DNA of 64,000 nucleotides from Sphyrna mokarran (Eukaryota). The position numbers were made by a program, and so were the translations under genes. Shown in pieces: positions 665 to 64,000 of the stretch. The stretch's first letter is position 1. Each line of letters opens with the position of its first letter. Location: positions 53,630,001 through 53,694,000 of the forward strand of contig JAGIQG010000008.1 of NCBI GenBank assembly GCA_024679065.1, written 5' to 3'. The notes under the pieces are model-generated. The model worked only from the letters and a program-made list of their open reading frames with translations. It ran no database searches and was not told the DNA's origin.

Positions 665-787
665 CTGAACAATTCTTTCCATCTCCAGTATATCCAGCCT
701 TACACACACATTGGAAAGAGCCGGGGCTGTTAAAACAGGAGGCTGAGCTGTGACAGTCGTGGCTTCCACTTTGACATTCATTCATAT
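665..787 (-). CDS. EGF type A exon 1 (calcium-binding EGF)
   Basis: 123 nt, AG/GT, DMNEC...GDGKNCS. Confidence 0.9.
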
Positions 788-9700: not shown

Positions 9701-12700
9701 CCACAAAAAGTGATTTTGAGGCAGCTTTTGAACACCTCCCAACATGTTAAAATGAAGAATGTTATAATTCTACTTCCCCAAAGGCCTAGATGGTCCAGAC
9801 AGTTTGCAGATGCATCATCCACACCAGGAAGATGATGGTATTGATTCAATCGTAACCTGCTATCTTGCAATTTGATCACAATGATTATAAAAGAATAGGA
9901 AATGAAAATTCGTATCACTGGGAGGATTCAGTGTCAGTTACCTGTACAATTCCTTCCATCTCCAGTATATCCAGCCTTACACACACATTGGAAAGAGCCG
10001 GGGCTGTTGAAACAGGAGGCTGAGCTGTGACAGTCGTGGCTTCCGTTTTGACATTCATTCACATCTAAAGTTGAGAAAAAAGATTCATTGGATGATCCTC
10101 TGCTTTGTCAATCTTAAACTTTATACAAACCCAGATTGAGGCTTTAAACACATAACTGTAACAAACTGTGAATTGATCCTGTATTATGTTTCAATGGGTA
10201 AAGGTTCCATGTGCTATAACATTGAACCTCACAGCATAGGAAGCTCCCGGTTTCCCTCAGTGCTCTGCACTGTGTTATTGAGCTCAATTAGGGCAACAGT
10301 TGGGTGTTAGAAATAATCTCTGCTCTCCTGGGCTGGGAGATAAAAATCATTGATCATTCTACCTCTGATTGGAGCCCAGTTACTCCTATTGGAAAGTGTG
10401 TGTCTGTAAACACAGAGTGAGGACAGGATCAGACTCACTATGGTCACACAGGGTGGGGTTTTCCAGCCATGCCCTGCCTCAAAACCAGAAAACCCCACCT
10501 AAGGTCTATGGGCCCAGCCGAAGGCTGTGTCCTGCTCACCACCATTCGTGTGTTGTGCGTAATGGTAAGATTCTGCCTACACTGATTCCGATGACCTATG
10601 AGGAATTGCTGTTTGTTTGGTGGGGTCTGTATTACTACATCATGATGTGAAGATGTCGGCGTTGGACTGGGGTAAACACAGTAAGAAGTCTCACAACACC
10701 AGGTTAAAGCCCAACAGGTTTATTTGGTAGCATTAGCTATAAGCTTTCGAAGCGCTGCTCCTTCATCAGGTGAGTAGGAGGCGTGCTCACAAACAGGGCA
10801 TATAATGACACAAACTAAATTTACAAGACAATGGTTGGAATGTGGGTTTCTCCCCCGATGCTGATAATGGTTGGAAGACTCTCATTCCAACCTTTATCTT
10901 GTAAATTGAGTTTTTATATGCCCCATTCTTGAACATGACTCTCACTCACATGATGAAGAAGCAGCATTCTGAAAGCTTGTGACTTGTGCTACCAAATAAA
11001 CATGTTGGACTTTAACCTGGTGTTGTGAGACTTCTTACTTTAACTGTTACAGCAAGGACAGAGTCAATGTTATCAATGTGTGAATACTCTGCTGAAAGGG
11101 AGGGGGCATCAGTAACCCATACTGTATATCTTCTTGGAGCAAGAAGATACATTCATTCAATTCATTCAATTCACAGATTTCAATTCATTCAGCAGGTTCT
11201 GACTGCTCTTCAACAATTCAAACCTTTATTTCAAACTTGCATCCAAAAAAAAAAGCGAAGCAATTTTGAACATGAGATGTGAGGGATTCCTCCATTTTCC
11301 AGATATATATGTTTTTCTCATCTTCCTGAGCTGGATATAATTTAATAGATAGGCACTGATAGCTTCATTAAGTTATAATGCTTCATGTATGAAGATAGCC
11401 TCTTTCAACATAACGAGTATCCATTCTTGTTAAAGCTTTCATCATCAATAAAGCAAACTCCAGAACTCAAACCCCAATCCCATCCCTGTCCCAGTCTGTT
11501 AGGAACTTAACAAAATCTCCAGTCCTGTATAGAAGCAATAACTTCAGTTCATTCCCAATGGGTTCAATGATTCCCATCACACACCTGTACAGACTGATCC
11601 ATTCCAGGTATAGCCAGTCACACAGGAGCATCTGAAACTTCCATCCTGCTGGGTACAGGAGGCATTGGGTCCACATGGATTGTTCACACACATGTCAATA
11701 ACTGCAGATAGAAAACACATGAGTTGCTTCAGAGAAGTCACAATATTTTTGAATAGAATTCATTCAGAACTGTGGTGGCAAAATTATTGTTCTTAAGGAT
11801 CAGGAAGAGACACAGGCAATAACAGGAAGAAAGCAAACCTGGTACTTTTGAGATACATCAGACATCTCTCACTTTTTCAGTGGGAGATCTGTGGAACACT
11901 CACACTTCTCTCTGTACTGATGTAGAATGTTGAGTACTTGCATTCAAAATGTTGTCTTTCAGTTTACTGAGCCTAACCCAGCTCCCTGGAACAGTCATGT
12001 TATTATGCTTTGTTGGTATAAGGCTGTGTGGCCCTTTATCTTACCTCCCATAGTCCTGGAATACCTTTCTCTTCAGCTGATTACCCAATTCTGTTAGGAG
12101 GGCATCATACGATATCTTGATTATTGCTAAACTAATCTTAATTCAAGTTCACCACTACTTGTCCCGAAATTTCACCTCTTGAAGTTTATCACTGTCTTCC
12201 TCATGATTCAGTATATTATCACATTTCACACCATCTGTGAATTCTGGCATTATTCCTTGAGCACCGTAGTGCAAGTAATGGTCTCAGTACATGACTGACT
12301 CCTAGTAAACCCTTCTATATACCTTCCTGCAATGCAAGAAACAACTGTTCATCATTACTCTTTGTTTCCTGTCACTCAACTCTATTCCCCTCAAATACAT
12401 GTCCATACATCTCACAAAAACCTCCAAGAAAACCTTTGCAAAACTGTTTTCTGCTCAAATTGATGGATTAATTTTTTATTTTCATCCCAAACACCATTGA
12501 GGGTTTGCATACTTTCCAGCATGTTATCATTCAGAATGTGATCATTTCCCCCTTCCTATTGCCCAGCTAGTTCAGACAGTGTATGGATGAGTTGTCCAAA
12601 TTAGGCAAGTGATAGGGTTTTAAAGAAACATTCTCTCAAGGATTTGTAATTTCATCCTCATGGATTCAAAGAAATGGAAATTGGAAGTGTTTCCCAGGGA

Positions 12701-15700
12701 ATATTGAGTGTCAGTTGTCTGTACAATTCTTACTACCTGAAAAAAGTTAATAGTTTGGAATGTTAACAGTACTTACAGCTTTTGGTCTGAAAATGCAACA
12801 TTGAACCAATGTCCTCTTCTCCAGATGACATTTTCACAGCAACACTGACAGTGTACGGTGTTGACTCATTCAGATCTGTTAAAAAGAAATAACCAGATAC
12901 ATTGGTGACTTCGGTTCCAAGTGGAGACAGATTTAAGGTCAATGGTAAAAAACCCAAAGAGAAAATGAGCGCAACATTAGTTAGGATCTGGAATGTGCTG
13001 CCTGAGAATGTGATGTAGGTAGATTAATTATAGTGTTTAACACTTTCACCACTTTCACAGCTATAGACAGAACAATCCATGCAGCTGATAGTGGCTGGAG
13101 TTCTTCATGGAGACGGCACAGTTCCTACATTGCTCATTTATGGCAATATATTTTTCCCAATCAAATACCCTCACTGGTGTCTCAAGGTTTGTATGGTTCA
13201 AAATTTTCCCTGTTTTTATATGTTATGGATTGTGTATCTCTCTCTTATGCTGCCTCATTTTCCATTCTTCTATCCTGCAGTGAAATTTTGCATGATCCTT
13301 TAAAATCTCAAACTGGGAACTCCACATTGGGAATTCCATATGTGGTTCCCTGAACTGCAACAATCATTTTATGCTCAGGTCTAAAGTAAAGCTGTTCTAT
13401 TGGTCTCAGTTGGTGCTGCCAATAGACATGAGACTGAACTGATACGTACTCCATCACAGTGGGAGTATAAGTCACAGTCATCAACACTCGAACTCTTCCT
13501 TGTTAATGCTCTTGATTTTAATTATCTCTCAGCCGCAACACATACACACCTGATGAAAGGCCAAGACTGCCTTTATCGCCTCCCCCACCTCTACCTCCAT
13601 CCTACCACCTGATCATAGACTTGCCAGGACACACCCTGTATACTCTATATGCTCCCGCAGCTCATGTCAAAGTATCCTTTGGTTCCTCAGAGTTAGTTGC
13701 ACTGACTGTGTCTTTACCTGTGAGGATCACACTGGTATTCAGAGGGAAAACAATTAGATTCTTCATCGCTCTGTCACTACCAGAGGGGCCGTAGCTAATG
13801 GAATAGCACGAAACCAGGGCAGCATCGGAGGTGGGTGGATCCCAGCTGATCACAGCAGTAGATGATGTTATCTCAGAAACATTCACGTTGCTGAGGAATC
13901 TTGAAGCTGCCAATAAAACAAAGGCTCAGTTAGATTGAGGAAAACATTTCAGTTCTCCAATTGTGAGAGAAAGACAAGCTGACACTAAAATTAATTTTTG
14001 TGAATACATACATGGGAGAGTAGTGACATTAAGAGACTGGGAGTGGAGTGTCTCATTAAACGGAGAGACACACTCAATGGCCATGGAGTAAGTTGTGTTT
14101 GGTTCCAAACCTGAAAAAAAAGATCCGACATTAAATAAAAGTCCCAGAATTCTGTGAGCATAATTCATGTCAGTTATTTAGCAAATAATAAATACATTTC
14201 CACATTTACTTCTGAACCTCCCTTTCCTCGTTCAGGAGCTCAGACATGCCAACTACAACCATGTTTGGGGTTTGTCTGACTGCTCACATATCAACGCTGC
14301 CCTTGAGCGAGGTGCAGCAGAGCAGCCTGGGAACAAGCTGCCCACCTTTGTCAGAAATTAACAGGCCGACATTTGCTGCTTCCCTCAGGTTAACATGGTG
14401 TTTTCATCTTTCACAGAAACGTTAAAGACCTGTTATTGAGCAGTTAGAAAGTGAGTAAGGTGGGGCGGGGTGGGGAGAGACCAGAGGGAGAGGGGGTTGA
14501 TCTTTCGGGCGAGCATACACAGGTCTAATTCCAGCTTCATGGAGGCCATCAGTCAGCTTTTACTCCTCAATGAGATTGACATGTTTCCTAAAAAGCCGTG
14601 CTGTGTGTATGATCTGCCACACCCTCAGACAGAGTGGAAAACAGTCACTCCTTTGATTCTACACATGATGGGGATGCATTTCCCCGGGGTTATGTGTATC
14701 ACTCTAGTAATAAAATTGAAACAGTGGCACCTGGCATAAATATTGCCTGGGTTAGATTTAATCATAAACATTGTTTATTCTTTATTTCAGAGATTCTATG
14801 GTTCCCCTACCAACTCTGTATTGGAGTACATTGTTCTCTCTGATGTTTGCCTTGAGAGTGTGTCATATCCATTACTGCACACTTTGCCTAGGAAGCTAAG
14901 GTGACACAAACTTTAGATTAGGAGCAGGATCGATGGATAGTTTTTCCTGCCCTTAACTAGGAGCCAATGTGGCGTATTGCCGACCCCAGAAACTTTCCTG
15001 ACAGGAGTGAGTAATATCACTCTGGACCATTCATGGTATCAGGAAGTCCCAAAGTGCTTTAAAACCAATGATATATATTTCAAGTGGAGTCACTGTTGTA
15101 ATGTAGGCAATGCAGCAGCCCATTTGTGTACAGCAAGATCACACATGCAGCAATGAGATATTGACCAGACAATCTGTTTTACTGAGGCTGGTTGAGTTGC
15201 CAGTATTGGTCAAGGATTGGAGGTGAAGTTTCCTCGCTCTGCTTTTTAATCAGCCCGGCGAACCTTTTACATCCGACTGAGTCGTGGTCTCTTCTGCACC
15301 CTGACAGTACAGCAATCCCTCCGTTCTCTTCGCCAGAGTCAGCTTAGCCTTTGTGCTCTGGAATTGCATAACCCCTACAAGTTTCTATCTCAGGCAGTGG
15401 TAGCACTGAATTACACCTGACACACGAGGTCCTCATTGAGATCTAACTGGAAGCAGAGAATGAAGAATGAAACCGGAACAAAACTCCAGACATTCCTGTT
15501 GAATGCTTCGGATGCTGGGGTTTAAAACTGATGTTCCTGGAGCTGGGAGGCAGCAGCACCAACCACTGCACCACCGTGACAACATCACACTCCCAATGTT
15601 TAAAATTCAATCCAAAACAGATGTATGCATTCATAGAACCCCAACTGTATAGAAGGAGGTCATTTGGCCCATCGAGTGTGCACCAACCACAATACCATGC

Positions 15701-18700
15701 AGGTTCTATTCCCATAATCCCACGTATTTACCCCGCTTACTCACACAATTTAGCATGGCCAATCAACACATCTTCAGACTATAGGAGGAAACTGGACCAT
15801 CCAGAGGAAATCCACGCAGATATGGGGAGAATGTGAAAACTCCACATAGATAGTTACCCCAGGCTGGAATTGAACCCGGGTTTCTGGCTCTGTGAGACAC
15901 CAATGCTAACCACTGTGCTACTGTGCCATGAAATGAATGACAAACATTTCACCAAGTTCTCCCATTTGTGGAAGAATCCATTCAACTTTTGGAGGAATTA
16001 TTCGTTTTCATTGAAACCCAAAGCCTTGTCATGTAATCAACTCTGTGAGAAATCTTTGGGTCCAGATGACTTTAGGTAAGATCTGAAGTTTCTTTTGCAC
16101 TCTAGATGCAGATATTCTTTTGAACCAAAACGATACAAAGTGGCCTCAGACACTTTTTGAACCTACAGCAGTCTCATTCATGAGTTGCAGATGAATTTTA
16201 CTACTTGAGTCTTAGTCATAACTCAGTGGTAATTGGCAGTACCTCAGTCGGAAGGTTATATCACACTCCAGAGACTCGAGTGCAAAATCTCAGCTGACAC
16301 TGCAATACAGCATTGAGGGAGGGCTTCATTTTCAGATGAAACCATAAACCGAGACCCATCTCTGTCTGCAGGTGCATGTGAAATATTCTACAATAATATT
16401 TCTAAAAGGATTAGGGCACTTCTCTCTGGTGTACTGGCCAACATTCATCCCTCATCCAATATCACTGAAACACCGGACTGTAGATTCTGGCAATATGCAA
16501 TAAAAACAGAAGAGTTTTAGCTTTGCTCTCTATAGATGCTGCCAAACCTGCTGAGTTTTTCCAGCATATCACTAAAATAATTCGGCACTCCTCATAAGAA
16601 TTTGGTGTACACAATTGGTTGCTGAATTTCCAAGATTATAACAATGCATACACATCAAAATGGATCTTAGAGACCAGAAAGCAGCTTGAGATGTTCTAAG
16701 ATCATGAAAATAACAAGTGATTTCTTCACTTTGCTGTGAGTTTTACAGAATGATAAGGTTTGTCTACATAGATGGAAGGTGATTACCTTCATTTCTTACC
16801 TGTGATCAGTGTCTCTGTGTTGGCTGAGATAAGGCTGACAGTGTGGACAGTGTTAGGTGTCCCAGTACTGTGGTAGTGCAGACTGCAGTCCTGCAGAGCA
16901 CTCACATTCTCAAGAGGGGCCCACGAGATCACAGCACTGCTGCTGGAGATGGATGTTAAACTCAGAGTCCCTGCAATCATTTCTAAAGACCAAAACAAAA
17001 ACTCGTTAATCTCAAGAGTTCCATGGGATCACTGCAGGAATGGCAATATATTCTCACGGCTACAAAGGGAATTCTTATTTTCTGGATCAACCTTTAAACA
17101 TCCCGAGCAAAAGAAAGTATGTCTGAAATTTGTTTTCATTTATCCCTTTCGAGAGAGCCCTTTGAAATACCGAGATTAGCTTTTCTGTTGTTGCTGTTTC
17201 TCATCATCTGCAGTTTAACGTCAGATTTTCCCAGTTAAATAGAATGTTTGAGACTAATGACCACAGATCCAAGAGCAGGAACTTTCATCAGAATGAGAAT
17301 TCCATGGTCCAAATATCTCAGGAATCATCATGCTTCTTCACAACAATTACATTAAAGGATGAGAGAGGTTTCTGGATATGACTTCCATTCCCAATGAGAA
17401 TAAAGGTCAGATATCCAGGATAGAAATAAAAAAGAGTATTGAAAGATAGAAATGGGATGAATTCCCTCTGAAATTATTCAATAACAGTTACCTGTACAAT
17501 TCCTTCCATCTCCAGTATATCCAGCCTTACACACACATTGGAAAGAGCCGGGGCTGTTGAAACAGGAGGCTGAGCTGTGACAGTCGTGGCTTCCACTTTG
17601 ACATTCATTCACATCTGATGTTGAGAAGAAAAGAAAAGCTCATTAGAGGAACCCCAGCTTTCTGCATTTTAAATTTTCTCTGGTTACACATCCAGATTTA
17701 GAGTTGGTCCATACATCCCTTATAAAATTGTTCAGTCAGTGATGTACAGAGTTGATCTTTGTGTGGTGGATACTTGTACAACTGCAACATCATCAATGAG
17801 ATTATTCATTCAGGGGTGGATAGGGAGACAATTGACAAGATTTTTCTGCATGTTCAACACATTAAGGATGAAATTGAGGAAACTGAAGCAAGTAACTTGT
17901 GAAAATCACAGCGATAGAATGAAAAATGCATGTAAAACAAGGTTCCTGGCCTTAGCAATAAGTTTGCAATCCAGTGACTATGGGTGGGACTTTTGCAGTC
18001 GGTGGTGCAGTGATTGTTTCGCACAGAGAGAAACAAGCTCAGTTAGTTTGTTGGCTACAGCGAAAATTCCCTCATCTTTCTGCAGCAGAGATAAACAGCT
18101 GGGACAAACAGGGAGCTCTTCCAGCCTGACACATTGCTGGTGAAGTCATGGCCACCATTGACCTCAGGAACTGAATAAACATCCTTTGAGGTCAGTCTTC
18201 AGCTCAATGGCAGGTTCTGATTTGAAACATTTTCAAGAGCTATGAAACTTTTAAAATATGTTATGTATTTTAAATACTTTTAATATTTTATAATAGGTTT
18301 TAAACATTTATAAACAATCCAAATACTGAGGCAGAAGGAGAGGGAGATAGGGAGAAAGATTAAGAGAGGGAAGGAGGCAAATGCTTCGAGTGGTAGATAT
18401 CAGAAAGTTGTGTGGTAATTCTCTCTCTAGTCCCTGGCTTTGCGAATGTAGAATTCCGAGGCACTACAAAGAAAGTGTGGCCCTGGCCCAAATGTTGCTG
18501 AAAAATTGGCAAATTAAAAGAAAGACACTAAAGGCTGCTGGGAAATGTACCTAAGTTACAGAGGTTTGACAAAGAATCACATAGGCAGTTCTCTTACAGC
18601 ATACAAGTAGATCTCTTGACTTCAAAAGGTAATGATTATCAATTTGAGGTGCCAATGATCACAGATGAACAAATGGTAGTAAAGAATTACCCATCACACA

Positions 18701-54700: not shown

Positions 54701-57700
54701 TCCAATGGCAAAGCAAACTATAGAACACATGTTTTGACCCCACCCCCGTCTCTGTGTGATTTAGAATGTGACAGAATCTCCAGTCCTGTATGGAAGTAGT
54801 AAGTTCAGTTCATTTCCCAATGGGTTCAATGATTCCCATCACACACCTGTACAGACAGATCCATTCCAGGTATAGCCAGTCACACAGGAGCATCTGAAGC
54901 TTCCATTCACCTGGGTACAGGAGGCATTGGGTCCACACGGATTGCTCATACACATGTCAATAACTGCAGGTAGAAAATCAGAGAGATGTTGTAAGCATCA
55001 TACAGTTGAATAAGATTGCCTCAGTACACAAGGGTAATCACATAAAAATGGAGCAGCGTCCTGGTGGGGCGGTGCACTTAATTGCAAGATGGCAACATTA
55101 TCCTGGTTACCTGTTAGATATATGAAACAGTTTCAAACCATCAGAGGGAGCAATCTGGAACACTCAGTTCTCTTCATGCAATTTTATTACTCAGGGTTAT
55201 TGCTTCAATAAAGGTTCCATTTTCAATCCAGCAAATCATTTGCAGAGTGACACATTTCAGGTTTGGAACATCTCTAATCATGTTACCACTCAGAATGTTA
55301 TATTTCCCCTTTTCCAAAAGCCCAGATGATCCGGGCAGATGCATCATCCAGACCAGGAAAGTGATGATATTGATTCAAGTGTAATTTGACATCTTGCAAT
55401 TTGCTTACGATGATTATAAATGAATAAGAAATGGGAATATTTTTCACTGGGATGATTCAGTATCAGTTACCTCTACAATTCCTTCCATCTCCAGTATATC
55501 CAGCCTTACACACACATTGGAAAGAGCCGGGGCTGTTGAAACAGGAGGCTGAGCTGTGACAGTCGTGGCTTCCACTTTGACATTCATTCACATCTGAAGT
55601 TGAGAAAAAAAGAGTTCATTGGAGGATCCCCAGCTTTGTCAACATTAAACTTGTACACACTCAGGTTTAAGCTTGAACCACATGACTCTTGGAGGACAAT
55701 CAGAGTGCCCACTTCTGGCAGGCTCCGCCATTTTGTGGTCTTGCACTTTCTAGTCAGAAGCTTAGAACATAGAACATAGAACATAGAACAGTACAGCTCA
55801 GTACAGGCCCTTCTGCCCTCAATGTTATACCGATCTTTGTCCGAAACCAAAATCAAGCTATCCCACTCCCTATTGTTCTGGTGTGCTTCATGTGCCTATC
55901 CAATAACCATTTGAAAGTTCCTAAAGTGTCCAACTCCACTATCACAGCAGACAGTCCATTCCACACCCCAACCACTCTCTGAGTAAAGAATCTACCTCAG
56001 ACATCCCTCCTATATCTCCCACCATGAATTTTATAGTTATGCCCTCTAGTAACAGCTACATCCACCCAAGGAAGTAGTCCCTGAAGGTCCATTCTATCTA
56101 TCCCCCGCATCATCATATAAACCTCCATGAAGTCGCCTCTCAACCTCCTCCATTCCAAAGAGAAAAACCCTAGCTCTCTCAAGTTTTCTTCATAAGATCT
56201 ACCCTCCAAACCATGCAGCATCTTAGTATCTGAAGTTGACAAGAAAGGAAGAAAGTTCATTGATCGATCTGCATCATTTTCAGTGTCAAACACTCGACAA
56301 ATCCAGATTTAGGCTTTGACCACATCACCATCCCTGCGTGGTTTGGTTTGGAACTTGACAAAATCTCCAGTCCTTATGGAAGTAGTAACTTCAGTTCATT
56401 TCCCAATGGGTTCAATGATTCCCATACACACAGCTGTACTGACAGATCCATTCCAGGTGTAGCCAGTCACACAGGAGCATCTGAAGCTTCCATCCTGCTG
56501 GGTACAGGAGGCATTGGATCCACACGGATTGTTCACACACATGTCAATAACCGTGGATATAAAATGAATGTGATTGTTTAAACACAAATGAATCAAAACT
56601 CTTCAATGAGGAACTGTTTTCAGATAAACAGAAAACAGCTTTAATTGAAGGAGATGCAGTCAATTAAATGAAAAGGAAACTTTAACCTGAAGTTCTTTCA
56701 GATTCTTGGGACAGTTTTCAACCCTTCAGAATGAGATGTGGAGCACACACAGTTATCTCCCTGCTATTTCTCTCTGCGTAAGATTCAGTTAATGTTCCAT
56801 TTTCGATCCAATGACATACTGAGGCAGTAAAACCTTTTCAATCACTGTACACCTCCTAATATGTTACAATTCAGAATGTTAAAATGACTGCCTCTGAAGT
56901 ATCAGCTGGTCCAGGCACTGTGGGGTTGGATCATCCAAACCAGGAATTGTGAGAACATGCCTGGGATAATCTCCAAGATCTTGCAATTTCCTCAATTAGA
57001 TACAAAAGAAATTAAAAGGAAATATTTAACCCCCAAATGGATTCCGTATCAGTTACCTGTACAATTCCTTCCATCTCCAGTATATCCAGCCTTACACACA
57101 CATTGGAAAGAGCCGGGGCTGTTGAAACAGGAGGCTGAGCTGTGACAGTCGTGGCTTCCACTTTGACATTCATTCACATCTGAAGTTAAGAAGAAAGGAA
57201 GAGTTTATTAAGGATCTCCAGTTTTGTCAATCTTTCTACTGTTACACCCCAGATTTAACCTCGAGACTTGTAAAAGAACCAGATTCAAGATTGTTTCTCC
57301 AACCCGAGAGCGCCCAAGATTCACTGGGTATGTTTCCAAGAATATGAGAAAAAATCATAACAGAAAGAAAGTAAACATGTGGTTGATTTGTTCCAATGGC
57401 AACTGTTTATCCAGGTCTAGAAAAACTGGCAGTAATATCCCAGCAAAGATCAATAAAGATTTCTCAATAATTCTGTTCAAGAAGTGTGGAACCTTCTCAG
57501 TCTCTTGTGGAACTTAGCTGGTCTGAATTGTTCTATTTATTTCTTCACCAACAGATTCCCTTTTAAGAAAGAATACAAGTTAACCAAAGCAAATGTCAAT
57601 GTTTGATCATTCCCCAGGAATGTGAATGTGAAAATAAATAATTAACAATTCTTCAGTTACCTGTACAATTCCTCCCATCTCCAGTATATCCAGCCTTACA

Positions 57701-60700
57701 CACACATTGGAAAGAGCCGGGACTGTTGAAACAGGAGGCTGAGCTGTGACAGTCGTGGCTTCCACTTTGACATTCATTCACATCTGAAGTTAAGAAGAAA
57801 GGGAAGAATTCATTGGAAAATACCCAGTTTTGTCAATATTAAACTATATACAAATCCAGATTTAGGCTGGAACCACATAACCCTCAGAGAACAATCAAGA
57901 GCCCTATTTTAACAGGCTCTGCCATTTTGTGAGTTTATACTTCCTAGCCAGCAGATTGTGACACAAATAAATAAACTTTAAATTCTATTATTGTTGGATC
58001 TTCACTCCTCCCTTGGAAAGAATTGTGTGTGACAGTGGAATGACAGTCGAATAACAGTCGGACAGGTTGTGATGTGAATGCTCCTTCCAAGGTCATAACT
58101 ATTTCAATCAGCTCCTGCTGTAGTGAATACTTCCATCCCAGTGTCCACCTCATTTGAGCTCAGTGTCAATCACTCCCATGTGAGAGAATCTAGGATTCTA
58201 AAGCACTGGGAAATAGACGTAAGGAAATTTCTCCCCTACCAAGACCATGCTGGGTGCAGTTCAACACTGTGTAGATACTATCCAACCCCTTACACAGTGA
58301 GTCAGTGTCCATCTCTTAACATTAATATGAAGCGTCAGTGGGATGTTTCATTGGGAGGGGAAGCGTAACGGCTGCAATTTTCCAGCAGTTCATGCTGATG
58401 GGATTCTCTGCTCCCAGGGCGATGAATGGAGATTTGCTGAGTTAAATTCTCCATCCTCGCTTGCAGCAGTAGCAGGGCAAGAATGGCTTGGAAGTGCTGG
58501 CCAAGCCGAATATTAAACATTTTTAAATCTTTTCTTCAAGGGCAAAGCAAACTTCAGGATGTATATCTTGATCACACTCCTTTCCTGGTCTGGTTTGGCA
58601 GAATCTCCAGTCCTGTATGGGAGCAGTAAGTTCAGTTCATTCCCCAATGGGTTCAATGATTCCCATCACACACCTGTACAGACAGATCCATTCCAGGTGT
58701 AGCCAGTCACACAGGAGCATCTGAAACTTCCATCCTGCTGGGTACAGGAGGCATTGGGTCCACACGGATTGTTCACACACACGTCAATGACTGTGGATAT
58801 TAAATAAATGTGATTGTTTACACACAACATGAAAAAGATCACTTCAATGTGCAACCATTTTCAGATAAAGAGGGAACCATTTTAAGTTAGTGAGATGCAG
58901 TCAATTTAAAGAAAAGGAAACATTAATCTGAGTGTCTTTCAGATACATGGAATCGTTTTCAACCCTTCAGAATGAGTTTTGGAACACAGTCAGTTATCTC
59001 CCTGCTATTTCTCTCTGCTCAGAGTTCAATTAATGTTGCATTTTCTATCCAATGACACATTGAGGCAGTGAAACTTTTCAATTTCCATCCACCACTATGT
59101 TACAATTCAGAATGTTAAAATGTCTCCTGTCTGAAGTCAGAGCTGGTTCAGACTTTGTGTGATTGGATCATCCAAACCAGGAATTGTGAAAACATGCCTG
59201 GGATTAATTTCTCAAATGGATAAAAAGACATTAAAATGGGAATATTTAATCTCAAATGATTCAATAACAGTTACCTGTACAATTCCTTCCATCTCCAGTA
59301 TATCCAGCCTTACACACACATCGGAAAGAGCTGGGGCTGTTGAAACAGGAGGCTGAGCTGTGACAGTCGTGGCTTCCACTTTGACATTCATCCACATCTG
59401 AAGTTGAGAAGAAAGAAAAAGTTCATTGGAAGATCCCCAATTTTGTCAATATTAAACTATATACAAACCCTGATTTAGGTTGGAACCACATAACTCTTGG
59501 AGAATAATCAGAATGCTCATTTTTACAATCTCTACCATTTTGTGGGTTTACACTTTTTAGCCAGCAGATTGTGACACAAATAAATAAAATTTACATTCTA
59601 TTATTGTTGTATCTACATTCTACCCTTGGGGAGAATTTTGTGTGACAATGGAATAATTTTCAGGCCGATTAACAGTCTGACAGGTTGTGATGTGAATCTC
59701 CCTTCAAAGTTATAACTATTCCAATCAGCAGGTCCTGCTGTACTGAAGACTTCCATCCCAATGTCTACCTCATTTGCACTCAATGTCAATCACTCCCATG
59801 TGTTGGTATCCAGGATTCCAAGGCACTGGGAAATGGAGGTAAGGAAATTTCCCCCCTGCCAAGCTGAGTGCAGTTCAACACCGTGTAGACACTGTCCAAC
59901 CCCTCACCCAGTGAGTCAATGTCCATCTTGTAACACCAGTAGGAAGTGTCAGCGGGATGTTTCATTGGGAGGGGAATCATAACAGCTGGAATTTTCCAGC
60001 TGTTCATGCCATCGGGATTCTCTGCTCCCAGGGCTATGAATGGAGATTTGCTGAGTTAAATTCTCCATCCTCGCTTGCAGTGGCAACAGGGCAAGAATGA
60101 CTTGGAACCTCTGGCCAAGCTGGATATTGAGCATTTTTAAATCATTTTTTCAAGGGTAAAGCAAACTTCAGGATATACATCTTGATCAAATCTGTCCTGG
60201 TCTGGTTTGAAACTTGACAGAATCTCCAGTCCTGTATGGAAGCAGTAAGTTCAGTTCATTCCCCAATGGGTTCAATGATTCCCATCACACACCTGTACAG
60301 ACTGATCCATTCCAGGTGTAGCCAGTCACACAGGAACATCTGAAGCTTCCATTCACCTGGGTACAGGAGGCATTGGGTCCACACGAATTGTTCACACACA
60401 TGTCAATAACTGTGCATATAAAATGAATGTGATTGTTTAATCCCAACATGAATCAGATCACTTCAATGTGGAACCATTTTTAGATAAAGAGGGAGCTGCT
60501 TTAAGTGAAGTAGATGCAGTCAATTAAATGAAAAAGGAAACTTTAACCTGAATGCCTCTCAGATACATGGAAGTTTTCAACCCTACAGAATGAGATGTGG
60601 AACACACTCTGCTATCTCCCTGCTATTTCCCTCAAATGGATTCCACATCAGTTACCTGTACAATTCCTTCCATCTCCAGTATATCCAGCCTTACACACAC

Positions 60701-63352
60701 ATTGGAAAGAGCCGGGGCTGTTGAAACAGGAGGCTGAGCTGTGACAGTCGTGGCTTCCACTTTGACATTCATCCACATCTGAAATTGGGAAGAAAGGATG
60801 AGTTCATTGGAAGATCCCCAGATTTGTCAATCTTAAACTTTCGACGTATGTCCAGATTTAGGCTTGAAACATATGACCTTTATAAAGGATGAATTGGTCC
60901 AATCTGTTGTTTCAATGGCCAAAGGCTCACATGCTCACTATAGGAAACTCCCAGTTTCCCTTCTTGCTCTGCACTGTGTTACTGAACTCAGATAGTGCAG
61001 CAGCTGGGTGTTAGAAATGATCTCTGACCTCTCTGGCTCGGAGACAAAATCATCAATCATTCCTACTCCTGATTGGAGCCCAGTTACTCCAACTGGAAAA
61101 TGTATGTCTGCAAACACAGAATGAGGACAGAATCAGATCCAGTTGTTGGACTCATTCAGAAAGGGTCGGATATTCTGGCCGTGCTCACCCCAAAACTAGA
61201 AAAGCCCGCTCGAGATCAATGAATCTTTGCATGGTCCTTGTCTTGCCCACTACAATTCCTGTGGTGGGTCAGATGGTATAATTCCACCCATGTTGTCTGT
61301 GATGATATTTGAAGAATTATTTTGGTGGGATCTGTGTAACTGTATCCCACCAAGGACAGAGTCAATGGTATCAGTGGGTGAATACTCTGCTGAAATGGAG
61401 GGGGTATCAGTAACCCTACTGTGTATCCTCTTAGAGCAAGGTTCTTCCAATTCCCTCAGCAGGTTCTGACTGCTCTTCAACAATTCAAATCTTTATTTCG
61501 AGCTTATATCCAAAAAGAATGAAAGGCAATTTTGAACATGAGTCGTGAAGGGTCATTCCACACGTTCCAGATATATATGTTTCTCTCATCTTCCTGAGCA
61601 GGACATAATTTAACAGATAGACCCTGATATCTTCATAAAGTCATAATTCTTCATGTATGAAGGTGGCCTCTTTCAATATAATGTTTGTCTGTTCATATTA
61701 AAAGTTTCATCATCAATAAAGCAAACTCCAGAACTCATACCCTGATCCCACCTGTGCCCCGCTCTGGTTTGGAACTTGACAATGTCCTGTATGGAAGCAG
61801 TAAGTTCAGTTCATTGCCCAACGAGTTCAATGATTCCCATCACACACCTGTACAGACAGATCCATTCCAGGTGTAGCCAGTCACACAGGAGCATCTGAAA
61901 CTTCCGTCCTGCTGGGTACAGGAGGCATTGGGTCCACACGGATTGTTCACACACAAATCAACAACTGCAGATAGGAAACGCATGAGATGCTTTAGGGAAA
62001 TTACAATATTTCTGAATGGAATCCAAAGATCTGGGACTGTGGTGGCAAAGTTGTTGTTCTTAAAGATCAAGAGGAAATTCAAACAATGACAGGAAGAAAA
62101 CAAATCTGGAGCCTCTGAAATACATCAAGCATCTCTCACGTTTTCGGTGGGAGATTTGTGGAACACTCACACTTCTCTCTGAGCTAATGTAGAATCACAG
62201 AGTGCTTACACTCAAAATATTGCTTTTTAGCCCACTGAGCCTGTGCCAGCTACTGGAACGAGAATGTAGTTAATCTTACTTTACTGGCATAAGGCTGTGT
62301 GGCCCTTTATCACATTCAGTTTACTGCCTGAATGGCTGTAGATTAGGAGAGGGAACCTGGGTATCCTTATGCATCAGTCGTTGATAGTAACCATACAGGT
62401 ACAGAAGGTGGTAAAGAAGGCAAATGCTATGTTGACCTTCATTACAAGAGGTTTCAAGCACAGGGGCAGGGAATGTGTTTTTGCAATTATGTAGGGCTTT
62501 GGTGAGGCCACATCAAGAATATTAGTCTCCTTTTCTGAGGAAGAATATTCTTGCTCTCAAGGGAGTGCATCGAAGGTTTACCAGGCTGATTCCGGGGATG
62601 GCAGGATTGATGTATGAGAAATTGACTAGGCTGGAGTTCAGACGAATGGGGGAGAATCTGATAGAGACTTATAAAATTCTAACAGAATTAGACAGGGTAG
62701 ATGCATGGAGGATATTCCCAACAGTGGGGGAGTCCACTCACCTAATGAATGGGCAAAGCCCTGAAAGCTAGTGGCTTTTGCTACCAAATAAACCTGTTGG
62801 ACTTTAACCTGGTGTTGTGAGACTTCTTACTGGGGGAGTCCAGAATCAGGGGTCACATTCTGAGGATTCGGAGAAGATCATTTAGGACAGAGGTGAGGAG
62901 ATATTCCTGCACTCAAAGAGTGGTGAGACTGTGGAACTCATTACCACAAGAAGTAGTTGATGCCAAAACACTGAATGTATTCAGGAGGCATCTAGATATA
63001 GCACTTGGAGGCAGGATTAGGCTATTAAGTCGGGGACCTTCAGCCATGATTGTAATGAATGGCAGAACAGGCTTGAAGTACCAAATGGTCTCTCCTGCTC
63101 CAATCTTCCATGTTTCTATGTTTTTATCTTATCCCCATAGTCCTGGAATATCTTTCCCTTCAGTCAATTACCAATTTATATTGAAGGTCAGTCATCTGTA
63201 CAATTCTTTCTATCTGAAAAAGGTCAACAGTGTCGAATGTTAACAATACTTACAGCTTTTGGTTTGAAAATACAACATTGAACTAATGTCCTTTTCTCCA
63301 GACACGGTTTTCACAGCAACAGTGACAACGTATGGGGTTGACTCATTCAGAT
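665..63352 (-). CDS. Internal part of a giant multi-exon extracellular protein gene: tandem cbEGF/EGF arrays separated by FN3 domains (both ends outside window)
   Basis: 58 apparently intact AG/GT-bounded phase 1-1 exons (32 type A, 21 type B, 5 FN3 halves) join into one open frame of ~2,360 aa; six-cysteine EGF spacing and FN3 W/Y/L-x-P-x-T-x-Y motifs. Confidence 0.9.
992..1108 (-). CDS. EGF type B exon 1
   Basis: 117 nt, [19 protein letters not shown]...GSVCT. Confidence 0.88.
1723..1845 (-). CDS. EGF type A exon 2
   Basis: 123 nt, AG/GT, 6 Cys. Confidence 0.9.
2431..2568. mobile_element. MITE-like element carried in one intron subtype (further copies near 7472, 29197, 40693, 48052, 49673, 51313, 58370, 59984)
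   Basis: Imperfect ~18-bp terminal inverted repeats tggctgcaattttccagc / gctgggaaattctggcca; absent from the sister intron subtype. Confidence 0.5.
3168..3284 (-). CDS. EGF type B exon 2
   Basis: 117 nt, AG/GT, 6 Cys. Confidence 0.88.
3788..3910 (-). CDS. EGF type A exon 3
   Basis: 123 nt, AG/GT, 6 Cys. Confidence 0.9.
4645..4761 (-). CDS. EGF type B exon 3
   Basis: 117 nt, AG/GT, 6 Cys. Confidence 0.88.
5562..5684 (-). CDS. EGF type A exon 4
   Basis: 123 nt, AG/GT, 6 Cys. Confidence 0.9.
5890..6006 (-). pseudogene. EGF type B pseudo-exon 4 (donor GT>CT)
   Basis: ACAG|CTGTGT instead of ACAG|GTGTGT; extra substitutions ([12 protein letters not shown]). Confidence 0.75.
6620..6742 (-). CDS. 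EGF type A exon 5
   Basis: 123 nt, AG/GT, 6 Cys. Confidence 0.88.
7195..8081. repeat. ~250-bp inverted repeat (arms ~7195-7448 and ~7836-8081)
   Basis: Left arm holds a plus-strand half copy of exon B with its acceptor; right arm holds an inverted intron piece inside exon B. Confidence 0.9.
7779..8010 (-). pseudogene. EGF type B pseudo-exon 5, interrupted
   Basis: Net +115-nt inverted insertion (7840-7955) shifts the frame; Cys2>Phe (NPFGLSISC). Confidence 0.88.
8505..8627 (-). CDS. EGF type A exon 6
   Basis: 123 nt, consensus sequence. Confidence 0.9.
9319..9435 (-). CDS. EGF type B exon 6
   Basis: 117 nt, AG/GT. Confidence 0.88.
9942..10064 (-). CDS. EGF type A exon 7
   Basis: 123 nt, TAG/GT. 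Confidence 0.9.
10645..11039. mobile_element. Penelope-like (PLE) derived insertion with inverted ends
   Basis: ~165-bp inverted arms (10680-10845 / 10880-11039) ending agtaagaagtctcacaacaccaggttaaa; hammerhead-like cores; absent from the paralogous site near 61340. Confidence 0.65.
11585..11701 (-). CDS. EGF type B exon 7
   Basis: 117 nt, AG/GT, QQDG variant. Confidence 0.88.
12777..12875 (-). CDS. FN3 domain 2, C-terminal half exon
   Basis: 99 nt, phase 1-1, [15 protein letters not shown]...FQTKS; polypyrimidine-CAG acceptor and GTAAGT donor. Confidence 0.88.
13718..13906 (-). CDS. FN3 domain 2, N-terminal half exon
   Basis: 189 nt, [19 protein letters not shown]...YSISY...TSVILT; AG/GT. 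Confidence 0.9.
14012..14110 (-). CDS. FN3 domain 1, C-terminal half exon
   Basis: 99 nt, [14 protein letters not shown]...VTTLP; AG/GT. Confidence 0.9.
15041..15420 (-). mobile_element. Degenerate DeuSINE (SacSINE1-like)
   Basis: Recognised from memory by the segment cagcaagatc..cagcaatgaga..tgaccaga.aatctgtttt; an inverted relative lies at ~16221-16690. Confidence 0.55.
15632..15927 (-). mobile_element. HE1/V-SINE tRNA-derived SINE
   Basis: Minus strand starts ggcacagtagcacagtggttagca (A box) ... cccgggttcaattcc (B box), then V-domain gtggagttttcacattctcccc. Confidence 0.75.
16221..16690 (+). mobile_element. Degenerate DeuSINE (SacSINE1-like), interrupted near 16480-16567
   Basis: ctccagagact.gag..caaaatc...gctgacact, tctctggtgtactggccaacattcatccctca; reverse-complement similarity to 15041-15420. 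Confidence 0.55.
16800..16982 (-). CDS. FN3 domain 1, N-terminal half exon
   Basis: 183 nt, [22 protein letters not shown]...SLHY...TETLIT; TAG/GTAAG. An alternative in-frame CAG lies 12 nt inside. Confidence 0.85.
17492..17614 (-). CDS. EGF type A exon 8
   Basis: 123 nt, consensus. Confidence 0.9.
19175..19291 (-). CDS. EGF type B exon 8
   Basis: 117 nt, AG/GT. Confidence 0.88.
20361..20533. mobile_element. Short PLE-derived palindromic insertion with 13-bp target-site duplication
   Basis: 65-bp arms 20361-20425 / 20435-20499; aagattcaaagtt repeated at 20349-20361 and 20534-20546; no insertion in the paralog near 37010. Confidence 0.75.
20684..20706 (-). pseudogene. Truncated type A exon remnant (3' end plus donor)
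   Basis: cagttacctgtacaatttcttacatctcca then an abrupt switch to intron sequence. Confidence 0.75.
20800..20922 (-). CDS. EGF type A exon 9
   Basis: 123 nt, CKTGYAG variant. Confidence 0.88.
21660..22335 (-). mobile_element. Old degenerate CR1-like LINE fragment with nested PLE-derived piece (~22075-22253)
   Basis: Decayed RT C-terminal similarity; paralog at ~27010-27612. Confidence 0.55.
22166..22204 (-). ncRNA. Candidate minimal type I hammerhead ribozyme (PLE type)
   Basis: UUCAC CUGAAGA A GGC-GAUAAUA-GCC GAAA GCUC GCGAG: core boxes intact, 3-bp stem II, stem I with one mismatch. Confidence 0.5.
22588..22710 (-). CDS. EGF type A exon 10
   Basis: 123 nt, AG/GT. Confidence 0.9.
23213..23335 (-). 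CDS. EGF type A exon 11
   Basis: 123 nt, AG/GT. Confidence 0.9.
23548..25870 (-). mobile_element. Old degenerate CR1-group LINE, split by a younger insertion
   Basis: Minus-strand RT motifs [10 protein letters not shown] (~25630-25660) and MFADD (~25557-25572); sequence is continuous across the nested element. Confidence 0.75.
24315..25536 (+). mobile_element. Young 5'-truncated CR1 LINE; ORF2 reverse-transcriptase C-terminal fragment (ORF 24330-25445, 371 aa)
   Basis: [43 protein letters not shown]; no stops; (TGTTCTA)n tail; atgat duplicated at both flanks. Confidence 0.95.
26518..27612. repeat. ~490-bp inverted duplication of a degenerate CR1 fragment (arms ~26518-27005 / ~27113-27612)
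   Basis: gttgtaacttggatgtgtaattggtt... versus ...aaccaattacacatccaagttacaac; the paralog at 21.7-22.3 kb has only one arm. Confidence 0.88.
27862..27984 (-). CDS. EGF type A exon 12
   Basis: 123 nt, AG/GT. Confidence 0.9.
28483..28605 (-). CDS. EGF type A exon 13
   Basis: 123 nt, AG/GT. Confidence 0.9.
29514..29636 (-). CDS. EGF type B exon 9, acceptor shifted 6 nt upstream
   Basis: Canonical CAG>CAA; in-frame TAG 6 nt upstream gives a 123-nt exon. Confidence 0.7.
29790..30525 (+). mobile_element. Rex1/Babar-type LINE 3' fragment, degenerate
   Basis: [10 protein letters not shown]...[16 protein letters not shown]...[16 protein letters not shown]...[10 protein letters not shown]; (aaatc)n tail. 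Confidence 0.8.
30878..31000 (-). CDS. EGF type A exon 14
   Basis: 123 nt, AG/GT. Confidence 0.9.
31766..31882 (-). CDS. EGF type B exon 10
   Basis: 117 nt, TAG/GT. Confidence 0.88.
32697..32819 (-). CDS. EGF type A exon 15
   Basis: 123 nt, consensus. Confidence 0.9.
34486..34602 (-). CDS. EGF type B exon 11
   Basis: 117 nt, AG/GT. Confidence 0.88.
35113..35235 (-). CDS. EGF type A exon 16
   Basis: 123 nt, AG/GT. Confidence 0.9.
36816..36835 (-). pseudogene. Deleted type B exon remnant
   Basis: tgtacagacagattcattc joined to sequence matching ~20152 onward of the paralog. Confidence 0.75.
37163..37285 (-). CDS. EGF type A exon 17
   Basis: 123 nt, AG/GT. Confidence 0.9.
38160..38276 (-). 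CDS. EGF type B exon 12
   Basis: 117 nt, AG/GT. Confidence 0.88.
38523..38645 (-). CDS. EGF type A exon 18
   Basis: 123 nt, AG/GTAAGT. Confidence 0.9.
39374..39490 (-). pseudogene. EGF type B pseudo-exon 13 (acceptor CAG>TGG)
   Basis: atatccatgg|TTATT instead of atatccacag|; NKPCGPIA substitutions. Confidence 0.75.
39990..40112 (-). CDS. EGF type A exon 19
   Basis: 123 nt, AG/GT. Confidence 0.9.
41002..41118 (-). CDS. EGF type B exon 14
   Basis: 117 nt, AG/GT. Confidence 0.88.
41615..41737 (-). CDS. EGF type A exon 20
   Basis: 123 nt, AG/GT. Confidence 0.9.
42618..42740 (-). CDS. EGF type B exon 15, acceptor shifted 6 nt upstream
   Basis: CAG>CAA; in-frame TAG upstream. Confidence 0.7.
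43567..43689 (-). CDS. EGF type A exon 21
   Basis: 123 nt, AG/GTAAGT. Confidence 0.9.
44441..44557 (-). CDS. EGF type B exon 16
   Basis: 117 nt, AG/GT. Confidence 0.88.
45030..45152 (-). CDS. EGF type A exon 22
   Basis: 123 nt, AG/GT. Confidence 0.9.
45892..46008 (-). CDS. EGF type B exon 17
   Basis: 117 nt, AG/GT. Confidence 0.88.
46515..46637 (-). CDS. EGF type A exon 23
   Basis: 123 nt, AG/GT. Confidence 0.9.
46808..47660 (-). mobile_element. 5'-truncated CR1 LINE
   Basis: ORF 47129-47602 [15 protein letters not shown]...RPRLEYCVQ; TGTTCTA tail at ~46810. Confidence 0.9.
48367..48483 (-). pseudogene. EGF type B pseudo-exon 18
   Basis: Acceptor CAG>CTG, 1-nt loss at the donor, Cys2>Arg. 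Confidence 0.85.
48974..49096 (-). CDS. EGF type A exon 24
   Basis: 123 nt, AG/GT. Confidence 0.9.
49985..50101 (-). CDS. EGF type B exon 19
   Basis: 117 nt, AG/GT. Confidence 0.88.
50598..50720 (-). CDS. EGF type A exon 25
   Basis: 123 nt, AG/GT. Confidence 0.9.
51624..51746 (-). CDS. EGF type B exon 20, acceptor shifted 6 nt upstream
   Basis: CAG>CAA; in-frame TAG upstream. Confidence 0.68.
52480..52602 (-). CDS. EGF type A exon 26
   Basis: 123 nt, AG/GT. Confidence 0.9.
53369..53485 (-). CDS. EGF type B exon 21
   Basis: 117 nt, AG/GT. Confidence 0.88.
53976..54098 (-). CDS. EGF type A exon 27
   Basis: 123 nt, AG/GT. Confidence 0.9.
54577..54597. repeat. Poly-C tract (C21)
   Basis: Direct count. 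Confidence 0.9.
54847..54963 (-). CDS. EGF type B exon 22
   Basis: 117 nt, AG/GT. Confidence 0.88.
55471..55593 (-). CDS. EGF type A exon 28
   Basis: 123 nt, AG/GT. Confidence 0.9.
55763..56228 (-). mobile_element. CR1 LINE 3' fragment (paralog of 46808-47660, cut short by a deletion)
   Basis: (agaacat)3 tail; [32 protein letters not shown]. Confidence 0.9.
56434..56550 (-). pseudogene. EGF type B pseudo-exon 23
   Basis: Acceptor CAG>CGG, donor GT>CT, Cys6>Ser. Confidence 0.88.
57057..57179 (-). CDS. EGF type A exon 29
   Basis: 123 nt, consensus. Confidence 0.9.
57661..57783 (-). CDS. EGF type A exon 30
   Basis: 123 nt, AG/GT. Confidence 0.9.
58674..58790 (-). CDS. EGF type B exon 24
   Basis: 117 nt, AG/GT. 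Confidence 0.88.
59275..59397 (-). CDS. EGF type A exon 31
   Basis: 123 nt, DVDEC variant. Confidence 0.9.
60293..60409 (-). CDS. EGF type B exon 25
   Basis: 117 nt, AG/GT. Confidence 0.88.
60656..60778 (-). CDS. EGF type A exon 32
   Basis: 123 nt, DVDEC variant. Confidence 0.9.
61848..61964 (-). CDS. EGF type B exon 26
   Basis: 117 nt, AG/GT. Confidence 0.88.
62312..63122 (+). mobile_element. Degenerate CR1 LINE 3' fragment
   Basis: [29 protein letters not shown]; tttatc at both flanks; absent at the paralogous site ~12040. Confidence 0.85.
62737..62830 (+). mobile_element. Short PLE-terminus insertion nested in CR1
   Basis: 12-bp target-site duplication tgggggagtcca (62725-62736, 62831-62842); matches 10945-11039. 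Confidence 0.75.
63254..63352 (-). CDS. FN3 C-terminal half exon (paralog of 12777-12875)
   Basis: 99 nt, [42 protein letters not shown]; not in the ORF track. Confidence 0.88.
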
Positions 63353-64000
63353 CTGTTAAAGGAAAATAACCAGATACATTATCACTTAGGTCCCATTTTA
63401 AAGTGGATCCAGATTTAAGGTCAATGGTAAAAGACCCAAAAAGAAAATGAGCGCCACATTAGTTAAGATCTGGAATGTGCTGCCTGAGAATGTGATGGAG
63501 TCAGTCAAATTGTAGGATTTAACAGGATATTGTAATGTGATCATCACTTCCACAGCAATGGACAGAACAACTCATGCAGCTGATAGTGGCTGGAGTTCTT
63601 CATGGAGATGGTACAGTTCCCATATTGCTCCTTCACAGAAACATATTTTTCCCAATCAGATACCGTCACTGGTATATTAAGTTCTGCATGACTAGAAATT
63701 ATTTCTGTTTTCATATATTGTGGATTGTGTATCTTTCTCTTATGCTGCCTCATTTTCTATTCTTCCCTCATGCAATGAAATTCTGCATGATCCTTTAAAA
63801 TCTCAAACTGGCAAATAAACACTGGGAATTCCATATGTGGTTCCCTGAACTGCAACAATCATTTTATGCTCAGGTCCAAAGTAAAGCAGTTCTATTGGTG
63901 TTGCCAATAGACATGACATTTAACTGATACGCACTCCACTACAATGGAAATTTAAATCGCAGGTCAACGACATGCAAGCACTTCCTTTTTAATGAACTTT

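Follow-up and report, generated by a model that had tools for sequence, protein, structure and literature searches.

Introduction

Several large proteins have been lengthened by the copying of exon blocks. In the super-repeats of titin and nebulin, in the kringle IV type 2 units of LPA, in FCGBP and in the NBPF triplets, frame-preserving units of several exons have been multiplied by unequal exchange and in nested tiers. The present analysis concerns a locus of Sphyrna mokarran that lies in a stretch of 64,000 nucleotides (contig JAGIQG010000008.1 of assembly GCA_024679065.1, positions 53,630,001 to 53,694,000), and this whole stretch is called the window below. Its minus strand carries arrays of EGF exons together with FN3 exons, and this cassette is repeated. 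The likeness to the systems named above is one of description, and the locus differs from them by its two exon types, by the many kinds of chimeric intron and by a cassette whose content varies between lineages. With a probability of about 75% the repeat is intragenic, and the window would then be the interior of one giant gene for a type I membrane protein. Nested intragenic repeats are already known to lengthen extracellular proteins, and the repeat alone is modest news. The identity of the gene is the more useful result, which bears on the origin of uroplakins from a PTPRQ-like receptor.

According to the available part of PMC5242461, the uroplakins UPK2/3 (UPK3a, 3b, 3c, 3d) were derived from a PTPRQ-like gene by the loss of the protein tyrosine phosphatase (PTP) domain and of most FN3 domains, and their ectodomain is shorter than 200 amino acids. 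In the same text, the tunicate proteins CionaNocat.1/2, which have five FN3 domains and no PTP domain, were found to resemble a PTPRQ-uroplakin intermediate, and such an intermediate was seen in tunicates only. Uroplakins of sharks, skates and chimaeras have been catalogued (PMC3922775, in its accessible part), and uroplakins act in egg fertilisation (PMC6340209, likewise); sharks are unmentioned in the accessible part of PMC5336234. A search of the literature with terms and locus identifiers, which covered mostly open-access papers and could have passed over a listing in a supplement, retrieved neither a description of the gene treated here nor a paper on uroplakin biology in sharks and rays. 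The gene is thus apparently undescribed, and its repeat is of a known general kind, with a lineage-specific cassette that is CUB-less and EGF-expanded.

The exon map and the repeated cassette

The window contains no N and has a G+C content of 41%. A self-comparison with blastn yielded 809 off-diagonal matches, Tandem Repeats Finder reported three tiny arrays and nothing more, and a scan against Rfam gave no family at the gathering score. On the minus strand 62 exons were mapped, all of phase 1-1, among them 57 full-length copies of two EGF exon types (32 of type A and 25 of type B) and an FN3 pair. The features are the following:

63254..63352, minus strand: F4', 99 nt and phase 1-1, which completes the second FN3 domain of the upstream cassette as its second half-exon (87% identical to F4 with flanks; translation)
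17492..61964, minus strand: EGF array 1, made up of 25 A exons of 123 nt and 19 B exons of 117 nt (exon map; Pfam EGF_CA/EGF_3)
16983..17491, minus strand: intron of 509 nt from the last A exon to F1, the presumed deletion junction; relatives have (C)-(D)-CUB-like-E-F0 at this place
16800..16982, minus strand: F1, first half-exon of FN3 domain 1 (exon map; weak Pfam fn3 match, E 0.029; relatives' models)
14012..14110, minus strand: F2, second half-exon of FN3 domain 1 (exon map; relatives' models)
13718..13906, minus strand: F3, first half-exon of FN3 domain 2 (Pfam fn3, E 2.2e-5; relatives' models)
12777..12875, minus strand: F4, internal-type second half-exon of FN3 domain 2 (its end reads ...FQTKS; the terminal type ends in ...FTTQS/FMTQS)
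665..11701, minus strand: EGF array 2, which runs off the window, with 7 A exons, 6 full-length B exons and one broken B exon (exon map)
60648..63994, strand not assigned: cassette-diagnostic segment, copy 1, three blocks matching copy 2
9934..13508, strand not assigned: cassette-diagnostic segment, copy 2, matched in three blocks by 60648-63994

In the original prediction the stretch at ~9.9-13.5 kb had been matched with that at ~60.6-64.0 kb, with an offset of 50,477 between the FN3 exons, and both statements proved right. When 9.5-14.2 kb was compared with 60.2-64.0 kb using blastn, three collinear blocks were obtained, which comprise 2,412 alignment columns (~2.4 kb):

12701-13508 against 63178-63994, 82.0% identity, offset 50,477
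11050-12040 against 61348-62311, 80.3% identity, offset 50,298
9934-10496 against 60648-61207, 78.9% identity, offset 50,714

The blocks contain an A exon, a unique B-to-A intron, a B exon, the FN3 half exon (12875-12777 in one copy, 63352-63254 in the other) and the following intron. On the 5' side of the FN3 half exon, the intron (12876-13508) matches a single place in the whole window, and therefore the repeat is not due to chance. Unique non-coding flanks were copied along with the exons at 79-82% identity, as in an intragenic cassette repeat.

The repeat had also been described as a ~50.5-kb super-repeat. The repeated cassette is real, but the period is not the duplicated unit, and a literal segmental duplication of 50.5 kb was rejected: only ~2.4 kb could be aligned, and the duplications inside array 1 are younger. 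Collinearity ends past the A exon near 9.94 kb, and when the sequence below position 10,001 was cut into 20 tiles of 500 nt, only two had their best match in array 1 near the 50.5-kb offset, the offsets of the best matches of all 20 ranging from 24 to 56 kb. The 50.5 kb are the present-day spacing and not the size of the copied segment, which they overstate because of later expansions of array 1 and retroelement insertions.

Array 1 comprises 38 canonical exons, three B exons with only an upstream in-frame AG and three splice-dead B exons; its 41 usable exons encode 1,655 amino acids. F1 to F4 are open over 189 codons and have canonical splice sites. When the 58 usable exons of the window were chained, 2,359 codons without a stop and with 94 N-glycosylation sequons resulted, which indicates frame compatibility, not splicing. 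The same applies to the predicted splicing of the exon at 17492 to that at 16982: the last A exon has a GT donor at 17492, the start of F1 at 16982 is preceded by AG, and both are of phase 1, but this is a compatibility of phases only.

The A exon encodes a calcium-binding EGF module (cbEGF), scoring 47.5 bits with Pfam EGF_CA against a cut-off of 27, compared with 22.5 bits for B. The cbEGF consensus (D/N-x-D/N-E/Q-C ... C-x-D/N-x4-F/Y) is present in 32 of 32 A and in none of 25 B copies. An O-fucose-type site occurs in 31/32 A and 22/25 B copies, an O-GlcNAc-type core in 30/32 A and 0/25 B copies.

Related genes in sharks and rays

A search with F3 found five proteins among 36 candidates, all of them shark models. 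F1 had 13 matches among 50% representatives, and the seven that were examined were shark or ray models; two more searches for relatives added further species. The relatives include models of Carcharodon (XP_041071625.1), Cetorhinus (XP_078423674.1/XP_078424633.1), Scyliorhinus torazame (XP_072340086.1), Pristis (XP_051886847.1) and Mobula (XP_072124103.1). They are automatic gene models, not cloned cDNAs, and 44 of them, including isoforms, entered the junction counts given below. Public records carry fragments of the gene under the names 'uncharacterized', 'fibrillin-2-like', 'Notch-like' or 'fibronectin-like'.

The relatives have a common layout. A signal peptide (the N-terminus of the sawfish model is hydrophobic) and a run of EGF modules are followed by the modules (C)-(D)-CUB-like-E-F0-F1F2-F3F4, after which comes another EGF run or the end. 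The end consists of F5, a juxtamembrane uroplakin-3-like domain, one transmembrane (TM) segment, seen as one strong hydrophobic segment, and a repetitive tail; four FN3 domains were counted. The window shares with these models the A and B modules (A exons are 75-100% identical across 11 sharks and rays) and the FN3 pair (50-81% per exon), and with the shark models also the F4-to-B junction and the repetition of the cassette within one model. It differs by its 44 EGF copies in one cassette and by the lack of C, D, CUB-like, E and F0.

When the juxtamembrane domain (P0032) was compared with the sequences of the PDB, uroplakin 3A (8jj5_C) was the sole match at E<=1, with an E-value of 2.4e-11; it was the best match for P0013 too. 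Four cysteines (C1-C4) of the domain align with uroplakin 3A, and at the position of the C3-X(n)-C4-NGPL signature of PMC5242461 the relatives have CDKQL, CNKQL or CDKPL and uroplakin 3A itself has CNPPL. An Atlas search with the UPK3-like domain gave only scores under 0.9, with UPK3B among the matches. 'CUB-like' is our own label for a module that had no match to Pfam CUB in the relatives; in the Atlas search all its matches were of CUB type, with scores of 0.85-0.87, below 0.9. A structure predicted for P0021 from its sequence alone, again for the CUB-like module, was of low confidence (mean predicted local distance difference test score 39.6), and a fold search with it gave no match at E<=0.001, so that the likeness to CUB is suggestive. 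Four motifs specific to the gene's domain had no match in the accessible protein file of the PMC3922775 supplement, and the stretch RSAGMIVIT is present in three sequences of that supplement.

Taken together, sharks and rays appear to share a single giant gene for a membrane protein related to uroplakin 3. The relatives' juxtamembrane domain and TM segment align with the UPK2/3 proteins including the four cysteines, but the short ectodomain is lacking: the TM segment starts at residue 1,558 (P0033), 1,925 (P0038), 2,267 (P0036) or 3,102 (P0024), the ectodomains thus being ~1,550-3,100 amino acids long, and the domain itself lies outside the window. With the R3 phosphatases (PTPRQ/PTPRB) and CionaNocat.1/2 the gene shares FN3 repeats, a long juxtamembrane FN3-like domain and a TM segment; the R3 receptors have an FN3-only ectodomain, whereas this gene adds EGF and CUB-like modules. 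Membership among the R3 phosphatases was rejected, as Pfam scans of P0009, P0013 and P0024 found no phosphatase family and many EGF matches. Fibrillin, Notch and tenascin also have long EGF/cbEGF runs, and tenascin has FN3 domains as well; an identity with them was rejected because the relatives end in a uroplakin-3-like domain and a TM segment, and no TB, LNR/ankyrin or fibrinogen domains were found in the Pfam scans of the relatives.

Further variation was seen among the models. At the Pristis locus (P0038, P0055-P0058), the models of which are named fibrillin-2-like, isoforms are numbered up to X45 and differ in the order of A and B exons. In Mobula (P0024/P0029-P0031) and Hemitrygon (P0039) the C-D-CUB-like-E-F0 cassette is repeated, six times in the manta, and the FN3 pair is single.

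One gene or several

The original prediction had favoured an intragenic repeat over two tandem genes, and the relatives support this. In models of five shark species (P0008/P0009, P0036, P0033, P0018, P0054) the FN3 pair is repeated within one open reading frame (ORF), in four models (P0009, P0033, P0036, P0054) internal cassettes and the terminal part share one ORF, and in three rays the pair is single. In the 67 cases in which the successor of F3F4 could be counted in the relatives, it was F5 (32), B (31), A (2), C (1) or the end of the model (1), so that an EGF module followed in 34. The FN3 pair of the window is of the internal type: its identity is 71-75% with the internal and 66-67% with the terminal pairs of catsharks and lamniforms, and in a tree it groups with the internal pairs of catsharks (support 94/84, under the tool's starred threshold). 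That no terminal or initial exon lies between the copies was likewise borne out, since tblastn searches of the window with the relatives' F5, UPK3/TM, tail and signal-peptide sequences yielded only cross-matches with A and B or E-values of at least 0.03. The A-to-F1 gap of 509 nt contains neither AATAAA nor ATTAAA. A single AATAAA, at 12480, lies in the F4-to-B intron; it is unremarkable because AATAAA occurs 35 times on the minus strand of the 64 kb, and counts of this hexamer are uninformative. The single ORFs of the relatives, the internal type of the pair, the lack of end and start sequences and the hexamer-free gap together support one gene.

The AATAAA at 12480 could nevertheless be read in favour of at least two paralogous genes in tandem, every one with its own EGF array and FN3 pair and with first and last exons that escaped detection; some of the products might be secreted via intronic polyadenylation. 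The loci of several species are indeed split into separate models, those of the basking shark, the small-spotted catshark and the zebra shark being annotated as several genes, and the start of three shark models falls on F1 or a little ahead of it. However, such split models were read as fragmentation because the two basking-shark models, for which the contig has one and the same length, complement each other as start- and end-type halves: P0008 contains module types of the N-terminus but lacks an end, and P0009 contains the end but lacks a start. Furthermore, the methionine of F1 is an internal residue in full models and the F4-to-B junction is internal in the relatives' single ORFs, and with the unmatched end sequences and the short gap this makes tandem genes quite improbable. 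Unlikely, too, is a shorter working gene with the cassettes lying upstream of it as partial duplicates that are seldom spliced or were silenced recently, the CUB-less one being in decay. The loss of the CUB-like/E/F0 block would fit, as would the long branch of the FN3 pair, the dead B copies, an intragenic inversion and an insertion bearing a reverse transcriptase. In contrast, splice sites (AG/GT) and all six cysteines are intact in 32 of 32 A exons, the 57 EGF copies are free of stops, F1 to F4 are open with canonical splice sites, and the mean nonsynonymous and synonymous differences per site (pN/pS) are 0.025/0.109 (0.23) for the 32 A copies and 0.042/0.148 (0.28) for the 18 canonical B copies. 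Mean nucleotide identity between copies is 96% for A and 93% for B, compared with 85%, with many gaps, for the 17 homologous B-to-A introns; the gap rate calculated for the introns (5.6 per 100 nt) varies with the lenient scoring of gaps and is given no weight. An assembly artefact, in the length of the array or at the A-to-F1 junction, is very improbable: the junction was seen once and is absent from all models of the relatives, yet N is absent from the window, distinct copies number 29 of 32 for A and 25 of 25 for B, and the 17 B-to-A introns are 78-94% identical, unlike the near-identity of falsely duplicated sequence.

Besides the split models, several points weigh against one intragenically repeated gene. 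In this organism every junction is a predicted one, and the link of the window to a uroplakin-like end rests on homology, the gene ends lying outside. Five of 26 B copies are dead against none of 32 A copies, although shared ancestry leaves fewer independent events. The end branch of the window's FN3 pair is 0.19 long, compared with a median of 0.044, for which species distance or a relaxation of constraint may be responsible, and for F4 and F4' pN/pS is 0.128/0.209 (0.61), a comparison that is based on 14 differences only and is too small a sample. The intron tree described below holds only two introns of array 2. Lastly, the EGF exon in front of F1 is at odds with the relatives, in which the predecessor of F1 in 68 cases was F0 (63), the start of the model (4) or CUB (1), and never EGF.

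A probable deletion derivative and its history

The original prediction of a duplicated FN3-plus-EGF-array cassette was true, but the cassette is atypical. In the window, tblastn with the relatives' C, D, CUB-like, E and F0 gave only cross-matches with A and B or E >= 0.03. As F1 never follows EGF in the relatives and these modules are lacking here, the cassette is most simply a putative deletion derivative, in which EGF abuts FN3. The first 93 nt of the A-to-F1 intron match only the intron after the A exon 20922-20800 (88%), and from this we infer a chimeric origin of the A-to-F1 intron. The 3' end of an A exon and its donor are present once more as a 33-nt copy (20709-20677), 91 nt after the same A exon 20922-20800, and this fragment would mark a recombination breakpoint. 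The 44 EGF copies of array 1 exceed the longest run in the relatives (27, in Pristis), though the models may under-call near-identical exons.

Clustering of exon flanks revealed the same multi-exon motifs in both arrays. A tree was calculated from 17 B-to-A introns of 680-920 nt, 15 from array 1 and two from array 2. The latter two fell into different starred clades together with introns of array 1, and monophyly was rejected (approximately unbiased test, p-AU 3e-100). Either the array of mixed units predated the copying of the cassette, or the arrays exchanged units later. Array 1 contains a further duplication:

39209..56228, strand not assigned: ~9-kb tandem duplication in array 1 (39209-47258 against 48203-56228; 87.2% and 90.9% identity)

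It is more alike than the cassette match (79-82%) and therefore younger.

Constraint on A exons and decay of B exons

The values of pN/pS and the identities given above show purifying selection on the intact exons, and the conservation of A, set against that of the FN3 exons, exceeds the constraint expected of a plain spacer. Among the 25 full-length B copies, 18 are canonical, three have only an in-frame AG 6 nt upstream and four have dead sites, among them the B exon 6006-5890 of array 2 with a dead donor. Cysteines were lost in two of the four splice-dead B exons and in none of the 53 others (Fisher p 0.004, the copies not being independent). B exons look optional, because five of 26 are dead against none of the A exons and because isoform models of sawfish and white shark differ in the inclusion of B, where mis-mapping of reads is possible. 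At this locus selection preserves A exons and tolerates the loss of B exons.

Three B exons starting at 51740, 42734 and 29630 on the minus strand have lost the normal acceptor (CAG to CAA) and kept the in-frame AG 6 nt upstream; a shift of the acceptor, which would add two residues, is possible. The related B exons 6006 and 1108 retain the normal AG. The B exon at ~8010-7779 in array 2 is split by an insertion of 118 nt, and its 5' half recurs, together with the upstream intron, in inverted form at 7195-7448 (87% identical to 8081-7836), which points to a small duplication-inversion in 7195-8081 as the putative cause of the exon's death. High identity of A exons extends ~40 nt into the introns. 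The synonymous divergence between A copies (0.11) is smaller than the divergence of the closest intron flanks, which is ~0.2-0.3 at more than 40 nt from the exon, and either exon-centred gene conversion or constraint on splice signals could account for this pattern.

A model of the gene and its meaning

All repeated exons are of phase 1-1, so unequal crossing-over could have added or dropped single exons and whole blocks without a break of the frame. Three tiers can be discerned. An old array of A and B exons with several intron types forms the first. In the second the whole cassette of EGF array and FN3 pair was duplicated (79-82% identity here), and a similar repeat occurs in other sharks. 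Later expansions of array 1 (87-91%) together with retroelement insertions set the spacing of 50.5 kb in the third. A deletion would have removed the C/D-CUB-E-F0 block and fused the intron of the last A exon to the acceptor of F1, as judged from the relatives.

All cassettes would be spliced into one transcript. The predicted product is a long, calcium-stiffened and heavily glycosylated EGF rod with FN3 pairs in between, with at least 2,359 residues encoded in the window if all usable exons are spliced. Its uroplakin-3-like anchor would, from what is known of the family, the members of which bind the tetraspanins UPK1a/1b, probably pair with a tetraspanin on the surface of an epithelium or an egg, and the protein could serve as a stalk of variable length or as a barrier coat in which B exons are optional.

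It is tempting to speculate, though the idea is rather doubtful at present, that sharks and rays keep an undescribed vertebrate relative of uroplakin 3 with FN3 domains and no phosphatase, and hence the intermediate proposed in PMC5242461, with a lineage-specific 'accordion' ectodomain in which the unusually conserved A module is a multivalent binding unit and not a spacer. The accordion would then have EGF-CUB-EGF-FN3 cassettes in rays, the FN3 pair in addition in sharks, and a CUB-less cassette with ~41 EGF modules in this genome. The gene is a candidate for a surface-coat protein in sharks and rays, and the window offers a natural deletion variant for asking whether the CUB-like block or the number of EGF modules matters.

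Mobile elements in the introns

The largest intron (4.5 kb) harbours an open frame of 381 codons on the plus strand (24300-25442), which encodes a reverse-transcriptase fragment (Pfam RVT_1, E 1.7e-24) and represents an insertion of the LINE (long interspersed nuclear element) type. Related pieces are present near 46809-47646 and 55768-56228, and 29804-30103 matches ALKBH8_N and is probably a C-terminal piece of a LINE. Self-inverted repeats were found in introns at 26518-27612 (82.5%), 10680-11039 (77.9%) and 20361-20499 (92.1%), which are probably mobile elements paired in inverted orientation or else fold-backs of local origin.

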